From Eledone cirrhosa (lineage: Eukaryota): a stretch of DNA of 64,000 bases. The stretch is taken from assembly GCA_964016885.1 (NCBI GenBank), contig OZ024741.1:107942001-108006000 (forward strand), read 5' to 3'. Below, in pieces: positions 1-757 of this stretch. Under the pieces are notes generated by a model, which ran no database searches, was not told the origin of the DNA, and worked only from the letters and a program-made list of their open reading frames with translations. Numbering within the stretch: the stretch's first letter is position 1; the number at the start of each line of letters is the position of its first letter. The translations under genes and the position numbers were made by a program.

Positions 1-757
1 TGTAGCTTGTTTTAGATCTTTTAGAGTTAGCATTAGTATATATTTTTCTCGGGACTCAGAATTATTATCTCGTACAAGTTCACTTTGCTGCACTGGGTCG
101 TTGCTGGCTCGGGATGGAAACCTTTATTGTTTATTTCGTGGTAGTCTCTTTAGTATTTTGGCCCCTTTTGTTGACCCGTCACCGTATCATTTACGTACTT
201 ATACCTCTTAAAAGGGTCCTTGCCTTATCCGTCCCACCTAGTTCTCTTACTTATTTCCTTATTTATTTATTTATTTATTTATTTACTTCTTTCTTTCTTT
301 CTTTATTTTATTCTCGCCTAACAATAGCCTGACACCTAGGTCGTAGAATTTAATTTACTTTACTTTTTTCTTTACACTTATTTGCTTTTCTTCACTCTCA
401 GTATTTTTTCTTTCCTATTTCTACCCCCCATTGTTCTACCCACCGTTCCGACTTCCTCCCCCTCCCCCTCCCCTGTATCTTCTTTGACCTCATGCCCAGC
501 TGTAGCTGGCACTACCAACGCTTGATTGGGTCTACTCCACCCCCTCCCCTCTTTCTCCTACTGGCAGGTTTAGCCACCATCTCCCCTACTAATTTGCAAC
601 CACAGAATTACTACTGATTTTTGACAATCACTTTGACCATATATGGAATTACCCCTTGAGAAGATCGGCTATTTAAATACCAGGATAAATTTTCATTTAG
701 TCCAGAATTAGCCGTCGAAACGGCTTGAGCTCAGCTGTCGGGGTCTTACTGGTTCCT
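1..757 (+). mobile_element. Penelope-like element 3' region/pseudo-LTR fragment (family A) carrying a hammerhead
   Basis: 477-757 recurs at 20040-20333 (+), 10164-10432 (-), 29411-29533 and 39725-39851. It ends in an HHR plus a short tail abutting (CT)n(TA)n. The 5' boundary is uncertain. Confidence 0.65.
651..744 (+). ncRNA. Type I hammerhead ribozyme, U3-A8 variant core
   Basis: ACCCC-TTGAGAA-GATCGGCTA...TAGCCGTC-GAAA-CGGCT tgagctc AGCTGTC-GGGGT. All three stems pair; predicted cleavage after C739. Confidence 0.8.

Follow-up and report, generated by a model that had tools for sequence, protein, structure and literature searches.

Type I hammerheads with a U3-A8 core in Penelope-like elements of Eledone cirrhosa, and a candidate record of a mismatched 3-8 pair and its return

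The window analysed here is a stretch of 64,000 nucleotides from the genome of Eledone cirrhosa (assembly GCA_964016885.1, contig OZ024741.1, positions 107,942,001 to 108,006,000, forward strand). The host genome comprises 3.0 Gb and is rich in microsatellites, and these dominated the output of a generic repeat finder in the window. Six TTGANAA heptamers are found at 656, 20233, 9336, 39745, 57150 and 63736, just as an earlier note on this DNA had placed them, and every one of the six lies inside a complete type I hammerhead layout. BLAST sorts the copies into A (656, 20233, 39745), B (9336, 63736) and C (57150), in agreement with the 'at least three families' of that note. The features are:

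1–757, plus strand: 3' portion of a pLTR belonging to a family A insertion that is 5'-truncated; it ends about 18 nt beyond the cut site, at a microsatellite.
651–744, plus strand: type I hammerhead of the youngest family A subfamily, which has U3-A8 and N7 = G; it lies in the pLTR of a Hydra-type Penelope-like element (PLE).
656–662, plus strand: core positions 3 to 9 of this hammerhead (U3, A8).
739–740, plus strand: predicted cleavage site after C17 (GUC/G), based on the layout and on a genome-wide excess of 5' junctions at the equivalent site.
9331–9422, plus strand: family B hammerhead, U3-A8, with palindromic stem III.
10177–10272, minus strand: decayed family A copy belonging to the C3·A8 subfamily, in which A9 is also changed to U.
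20228–20321, plus strand: probably inactive family A copy with U3-A8, in which A15.1 is U and stem I has a mismatch.
29411–29649, no strand assigned: short inverted pair of family A 3' ends without the core, spanning the cut site.
39740–39839, plus strand: family A copy with U3-A8 and N7 = A, from an older subfamily; its inverted partner stops at the cut site or at most 3 nt from it.
54670–56020, plus strand: RT and GIY-YIG coding pieces of a family C PLE (Pfam RVT_1 weak, below cut-off; GIY-YIG), 98% identical to locus L463.
57146–57183, plus strand: minimal family C hammerhead, U3-A8, with a 6-nt palindromic stem III (dimer type).
63731–63820, plus strand: family B hammerhead, U3-A8, with palindromic stem III and a C·A mismatch in stem I.
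Starts of canonical C3-G8 cores: 13399 (minus), 15549 (minus), 19893 (plus), 32269 (minus), 33384 (plus), 38015 (plus), 38528 (plus), 39020 (minus), 39263 (plus), 49021 (minus), 49223 (plus) and 51906 (plus); also 31998 (plus).

Hammerheads thus occur in the window at a density of about one per 3–4 kb. The decayed C3·A8 copy at 10177–10272 (minus strand) is a seventh member of family A, absent from the earlier list, and the canonical C3-G8 type I hammerheads, at least 12 in number, belong to several other repeat families and mostly have a palindromic stem III. A retrozyme-like tandem repeat of about 436 nt with a small C3-G8 hammerhead occupies 13078–14267 and 36612–38530. Other Hydra-like PLE ORFs, of further families and some of them inverted, are located at 21753–23893 (minus strand), at 25547–28113, and at 52308–53318 (plus strand).

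The six motifs are type I hammerhead folds with U3-A8, a Watson-Crick pair in each of these copies: three helices surround the core and stem I is open. In the copy at 651–744, stem I is made of 651–655 and 740–744, the core (656–662) is followed by stem II (663–716), the GAA (717–719) and stem III (720–738), and C17 is nucleotide 739. This fold is the MFE fold of the copy, with a folding z-score of only −0.25. U4, G5, A6 and A9, G12, A13 and A14, the A15.1-U16.1 pair and H17 are present in five of the six copies, A15.1 being altered at 20233. The description of 'intact stems, only N7 varying' is accordingly close to the sequences without being exact, as stem I is mismatched in both 20233 and 63736 (C·A in the latter) and 20233 also carries A15.1 to U. 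By itself the heptamer is at chance level in the window (24 on the plus and 23 on the minus strand, 47 in total). The full hammerhead descriptor, used in a strict form that retained just two of the six noted copies (656 and 9336), gave 14 matches in the window versus 0 in two shuffles, and 23 matches versus 6 scattered ones in two shuffles in a 400-kb genome sample made up of forty 10-kb stretches placed at round coordinates. In an alignment of ten copies, in which the family B rows are partly misaligned, 84% of the cells were paired and six pairs had changed on both sides, above all slid controls.

Family A is a Hydra-type PLE, family C a second PLE and family B a tandem repeat of about 590 nt. 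The copy at 656 forms the 3' end of a truncated insertion (locus L132), which extends beyond the upstream edge of the window with the endonuclease C-terminus and an inverted pLTR containing a second hammerhead. A family A tandem copy (L116) contains a frame of 786 codons with its first Met about 200 nt past the cut site. This frame returned no hit against Pfam; it shows an RT-like YRDD and a YIG motif, and DKT, CxCX5C, CxxC and CxH, with RWR at the RWK position, were read by eye in the family A protein P0001. The insertions use (TA)n targets and have the architecture of EN+ PLEs, with partial tandems, an inverted 5'-truncated pLTR and a tail at one end. Motifs, (TA)n targets and the pLTR hammerhead are shared with the Hydra clade of EN+ PLEs as presented by Craig et al. 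(2021, PMC8557442); the hammerheads given there for Hydra elements are canonical, whereas family A is non-canonical at 3/8 throughout. An older relative of family A (L118, L224, L244, L258, L274 and others) has a short GNNC-type stem II hairpin and a different stem III loop, and every copy of it that was seen is truncated ahead of the core.

The family C hammerhead lies downstream of its own PLE ORF, which shows DKG and a CX4CXXC-like linker and whose protein scores above the Pfam cut-off for GIY-YIG and below it for RVT_1. Because the ORFs of families A and C differ, with a weak BLASTP match of 22% identity over the best stretch, U3-A8 would have arisen at least twice here. In one family C copy (L468:4713–5708, minus strand) an ORF of 332 aa stands upstream of the RT ORF, either as a frameshift-split N-terminal part or as a separate ORF.

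Family B hammerheads are spaced by 592–597 nt in L142, L247, L470 and L475, with one type I hammerhead per unit, and no long ORF was found between them in the five larger loci checked. Two Hydra-like ORF fragments lie beside family B copies; as they are not common to the family B loci, they were not adopted as its ORF. The arrangement of tandem units of about 590 nt with one type I hammerhead each is like that of the non-LTR retrozymes presented by Li et al. (2026, 10.64898/2026.07.22.740005), although the core of family B is U3-A8 and no autonomous partner was found for it here. Stem I of family B shows a second compensatory walk, with CCCC/GGGG (n = 14), CCUC/GAGG (n = 10), the mismatched CCCC/GAGG (n = 6) and UCCC/GGGA (n = 6) in L136–L165, L247, L469–L475 and at 63731–63820 of the window.

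Cores were counted genome-wide as exact patterns, so that the counts are lower bounds; the reversed-pattern controls all gave 0. Family A returned 5,810 cores, of which 1,490 have C3·A8 and 83 a base other than A at position 8 (by manual count, 42 U3·G8 and 9 C3-G8), leaving at most 4,237 with U3-A8. No purine was found at position 3 among the first 100 family A matches listed. In contigs of sequencing run X1, which may be the assembled sample, C accounts for 24% of the depth at position 3; runs X5 and X6, with just 3–4 contigs of low depth, were left aside. There are 120 family B cores, with U3-A8 in 98 of the first 100 listed, and 6,872 family C cores, with U3-A8 in 100 of the first 100 listed. 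The U3-A8 core can therefore be called fixed, as the earlier note had it, in families B and C; in family A the C3·A8 cores speak against this.

The note had further argued that searches based on CUGANGA miss such cores, so that hammerhead counts in this lineage might be much too low. The first part is borne out by about 11,000 U3-A8 cores in the genome; the second part goes too far. Among descriptor matches, U3-A8 accounts for 6 of 23 in the 400-kb sample, next to 17 with C3-G8, and all six come from just two loci; in the window it accounts for 2 of 14. An Rfam scan of the window at the gathering threshold returned 0 hits, missing the 12 canonical C3-G8 cores as well. U3-A8 cores are a sizeable minority, not a hidden majority, and the undercount is modest. 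A search tolerating Y3/R8 would add about one tenth to one third more hammerheads here, which is useful and not transformative.

The U3-A8 core itself, also in PLEs, is already in print, and its standing as a known natural swap is confirmed by the published variants (PMC3088659, PMC4209133). Perreault et al. (2011, PMC3088659) report natural U3-A8, call it compensatory and cite it as active in vitro. The 3/8 covariation is identical to the one seen here, while the examples in the available text of that study are scattered, with neither a lineage history nor a mismatch stage. Cervera and De la Peña (2014, PMC4209133) published a U3-A8 descriptor search in Schistosoma PLEs with about 1,300 copies. 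Their Cercyon PLEs of S. mansoni resemble the present ones in carrying type I hammerheads in terminal repeats with U3-A8 for C3-G8, so that an altered descriptor was needed, and in occurring mostly as solitary or inverted copies, and family C is of the same minimal, palindromic type. Unlike Cercyon, Eledone has about 11,000 cores in three families, with probably at least two origins, and family A has a full stem III of 5–6 bp and a long stem II. Amplified C3·A8 or U3·G8 subfamilies and an order of states are not described in the available text of the Cercyon study. General hammerhead background is found in PMC6765202, PMC3884650, PMC2920678 and PMC7151607.

What looks new is that the main family was amplified with a mismatched C3·A8 core, in about 1,500 copies, and then regained U3-A8. 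The literature searched contained neither amplified C3·A8 subfamilies nor a reversion of this kind, although some other hammerhead work may hold C3·A8 rates or PLE examples. The C3·A8 copies have linked diagnostic changes in common, often stand at both ends of one insertion, and in many cases have near-full ORFs, 88–93% identical to the youngest protein. A tree of ORF DNA only (26 of 29 loci; three were left out as too short), which supersedes a first pLTR tree distorted by 5'-truncated copies, takes the form of a ladder running from U3·G8 through old U3-A8 and a grade of thirteen C3·A8 copies to the nested young U3-A8 (UFBoot 99–100). AU tests on 25 copies, run with fast searches and 5,000 replicates, fewer than advised, rejected trees in which C3·A8 forms a side clade (p = 8e-8) and those in which all U3-A8 copies group together (p = 9e-50). 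The end branches shorten along the ladder from about 0.06 to 0.002, and the ladder is therefore rooted by age. A tree rooted with the two Hydra-like ORF fragments adjoining family B copies agrees with it and leaves the base open. The return from C3 to U3 in the master lineage of family A is thus well supported. The earlier step from U3 to C3 is less so, since with the outgroup base open it rests mainly on the age-based rooting. U3·G8 as a bridge from C3-G8 was not adopted, as the analysis turned up no ancestor with C3-G8 and U3·G8 may lie on a side branch. Canonical C3-G8, one transition from C3·A8, is represented by just the 9 scattered copies and never took over.

The strict covariation of positions 3 and 8 that the earlier note had relied on does not hold in family A. 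Position 3 changed twice on the master lineage while A8 stayed, which is the independent variation that the note itself had named as speaking against its view.

Early and late C3·A8 groups differ by 31 synonymous changes at 248 sites (pS 0.125) and 15 non-synonymous ones at 862 (pN 0.017). The resulting dN/dS of 0.14 points to an autonomous, selected lineage in the C3·A8 stage. The 42 other core and stem positions all stayed constant during this stage, versus changes at 12 of 118 in the flank (Fisher p = 0.037; Poisson against pS p = 0.005), the groups having been delimited with hand-made motifs and some 16 of these 42 sites being held constant by the search pattern; for the 26 pattern-free sites 3.3 changes would be expected (p about 0.04, hand calculation). 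Loop II changed at 5 of 38 positions. Over the whole trunk the figures are 1 of 42 for core and stem versus 46 changes in 82 flank sites.

The ends of family A copies were examined for signs of cleavage. Downstream, copies end 20 or 100 nt from the predicted cut, with loose ends. A total of 17,724 tails retain the intact site, and most insertions therefore appear to derive from uncut or religated RNA: about 98% of the counted copies read through the predicted cut site and about 2% start exactly there. Starts at GGGGT without the preceding TC were matched in 442 tails. The first 100 of these matches listed (contigs C1–C2) gave 101 rows, five of them from one duplicated stretch; 24 rows proved to be small indels or substitutions, which leaves 77 true junctions at the cut site. 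The 77 comprise 49 young U3-A8, 23 C3·A8-type, 2 transitional U3-A8 and 3 hybrid junctions, and one of the C3·A8-type junctions (L412) has a C3·A8 core on its inverted partner. Group-6 U3-A8 copies were considered as the source of all junctions with C-type tails and rejected, because these copies are distinguishable by a tail marker that just 2 of 25 such junctions carry.

A control offset of −3 gave 33 matches genome-wide, of which the 30 examined comprised 8 U3-A8 and 18 C3·A8-type junctions. After correction for pattern pass rates, the cut site is enriched relative to this control about 17-fold in U3-A8 tails and about 3-fold in those of the C3·A8 type (Fisher p = 0.0012), a difference that rests on one usable control offset, itself with microhomologies, which affect both sites, and on a C3·A8 denominator in which 70% of C-type tails are taken to be C3·A8 (from the first 100 of 1,403 listed). 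Direct and inverted copy both stop at the site in 15 young U3-A8 cases versus 2 of the C3·A8 type (p = 0.04). The absolute junction rates are 2.3% for U3-A8 and 1.8% for the C3·A8 type (p = 0.39). An offset of +5 was discarded as a control, as it is not independent: by manual count, 15 of 30 examined have an inverted partner readable as ending at the cut site. An unselected junction histogram of 128 tails, too small a sample, had 0 at the site. The excess of copy ends at the cut site lends indirect support to the earlier suggestion that the U3-A8 hammerheads are working ribozymes.

Two further observations concern the ends. Most short family A copies break within the 3' arm of stem II, 35–55 nt ahead of the cut site (for example 29411–29533 in the window; L004–L030), which suggests a strong RT stop or template-switch point. 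At fold-back junctions (L312, L315–L317, L322, L323, L325–L327, L329–L331) a reading is possible in which the inverted copy stops at the cut site and then self-primes via 1–2 bp; this is a possible route to the inverted pLTRs of PLEs.

In folding models the median predicted probability of the catalytic helices is about 0.7 for the youngest subfamily and 0.1–0.4 for the C3·A8, transitional and next-youngest subfamilies (2–12 copies a group). Stems II and III have sequence in common and can swap partners in these models, and the palindromic stem III loop is predicted to pair between two molecules.

Judging from the sequences, the hammerheads in the PLE terminal repeats and in the related tandem repeat probably act as slow ribozymes that cut a small share of the RNA, which would explain how family A could be mobile with U3·G8, U3-A8 and C3·A8. 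Reverse transcription would start downstream of the ribozyme and would have to copy through it. Fast cleavage would then abort insertions, and only partial cleavage would be tolerable because the RT has to pass through the ribozyme. The 5' end of the ORF-bearing RNA would be set by cleavage now and then, and run-off of the RT at the cleaved 5' end would leave the cut-site junctions. U3-A8 would cut more than C3·A8, the latter being weakened rather than certainly dead. With weak selection for rate, the 3-8 pair could wander among pyrimidine-purine states while the fold is retained. A mismatch stage followed by a regained pair would fit elements that likely need only weak self-cutting. Against slow ribozymes stand the similar absolute junction rates, for the signal may partly reflect RT stalling at helix III or microhomology in the G-run, and the region may be conserved as an RT-binding or promoter element. 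In a pairwise scan of a type III hammerhead (PMC9901934), moreover, only the G3-C8 swap rescued activity in the available data; other single and double mutants were low, which would include U3-A8 and C3·A8.

The only in vitro system described so far, Poseidon PAc of Anolis (Frangieh et al. 2024, PMC11167929), offers a comparison. Its hammerhead mutants are reported to insert in vitro, with uncut RNA as the main substrate, and family A is like it in having two 3' ends downstream of the hammerhead, as a tail signature, and mostly uncut template. PAc has a C3-G8 core and, as reported, no RNA-seq reads ending at the cut site, whereas genomic copies of family A begin there; unlike PAc, family A offers natural core variants as an allelic series.

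Alternatively, the fold might be kept just as a structure recognised by the RT protein or as a promoter, with catalysis lost or irrelevant, positions 3 and 8 drifting and the junctions produced by RT stalls and microhomology. We regard this as unlikely. About 1,500 C3·A8 copies from an autonomous lineage, the similar absolute junction rates and the low predicted probability of the catalytic fold (0.1–0.4) in C3·A8 and several U3-A8 subfamilies all fit it, as does the suggestion of Craig et al. (PMC8557442) that hammerheads may merely parasitize PLEs, Naiads being reported to proliferate without canonical ones. However, ten other, mostly unpaired core positions are unchanged on the whole trunk, where 5.6 changes would be expected (p = 0.004; four of the ten are fixed by the pattern). 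Position 3 remained a pyrimidine and position 8 a purine, and the precise double-ended junctions are distributed 15 to 2 despite stems I and III being common to both types.

The view of the earlier note, by which U3-A8 is strictly compensated and fully active and C3·A8 copies are dead mutants or passengers of U3-A8 elements, we consider very improbable. It would account for the U3-A8 cores in 98 and 100 of the first 100 listed for B and C, for the return of family A to U3-A8 and for the in vitro activity reported for U3-A8 (PMC3088659). A passenger class would lack a grade and selected ORFs, yet the C3·A8 copies form a trunk grade from which the youngest U3-A8 copies descend, and their near-full ORFs are under purifying selection. 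The AU tests largely refute the view for family A, and reading through the cut site in about 98% of copies also counts against it.

A protonated C·A+ wobble is shaped like the U·G wobble, the state of the oldest family A subfamily. That C3·A8 is by this means a well-functioning core, aided by a dimer or the element's protein, is the reading to which we give least credence: C3·A8-type copies do have an approximately 3-fold excess of cut-site junctions (23 cases), the remainder of the fold is conserved through the C3·A8 stage and the PAc hammerhead is reported to cut only with protein (PMC11167929), but the enrichment is weaker and precise ends are fewer than for U3-A8, the equivalent single mutant is low in the published scan (PMC9901934), and the lineage reverted to U3-A8.

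Carrying the slow-ribozyme explanation further, we put forward tentatively, and without calling it probable, that family A is a dated record of a catalytic pair that was broken and repaired. It would have passed from U3·G8/U3-A8 through a long stage of C3·A8, in which the ORF was under selection and insertions numbered in the thousands, to U3-A8 and never to C3-G8. The rate at which copies start at the cut site would record germline cutting by each version, and selection would favour a weak ribozyme that the RT can copy through.

The U3-A8 hammerheads are real and already known; what deserves further work is the C3·A8 stage with its reversal. In the published account of the sole in vitro system, cleavage was dispensable (PMC11167929). 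Family A provides an observed path via a mismatch intermediate at a catalytic tertiary pair, and a natural, time-ordered allelic series at the 3-8 pair on one scaffold, with a genomic read-out of in vivo cleavage for each state. Hence, the question of how much cleavage a PLE needs becomes directly testable.
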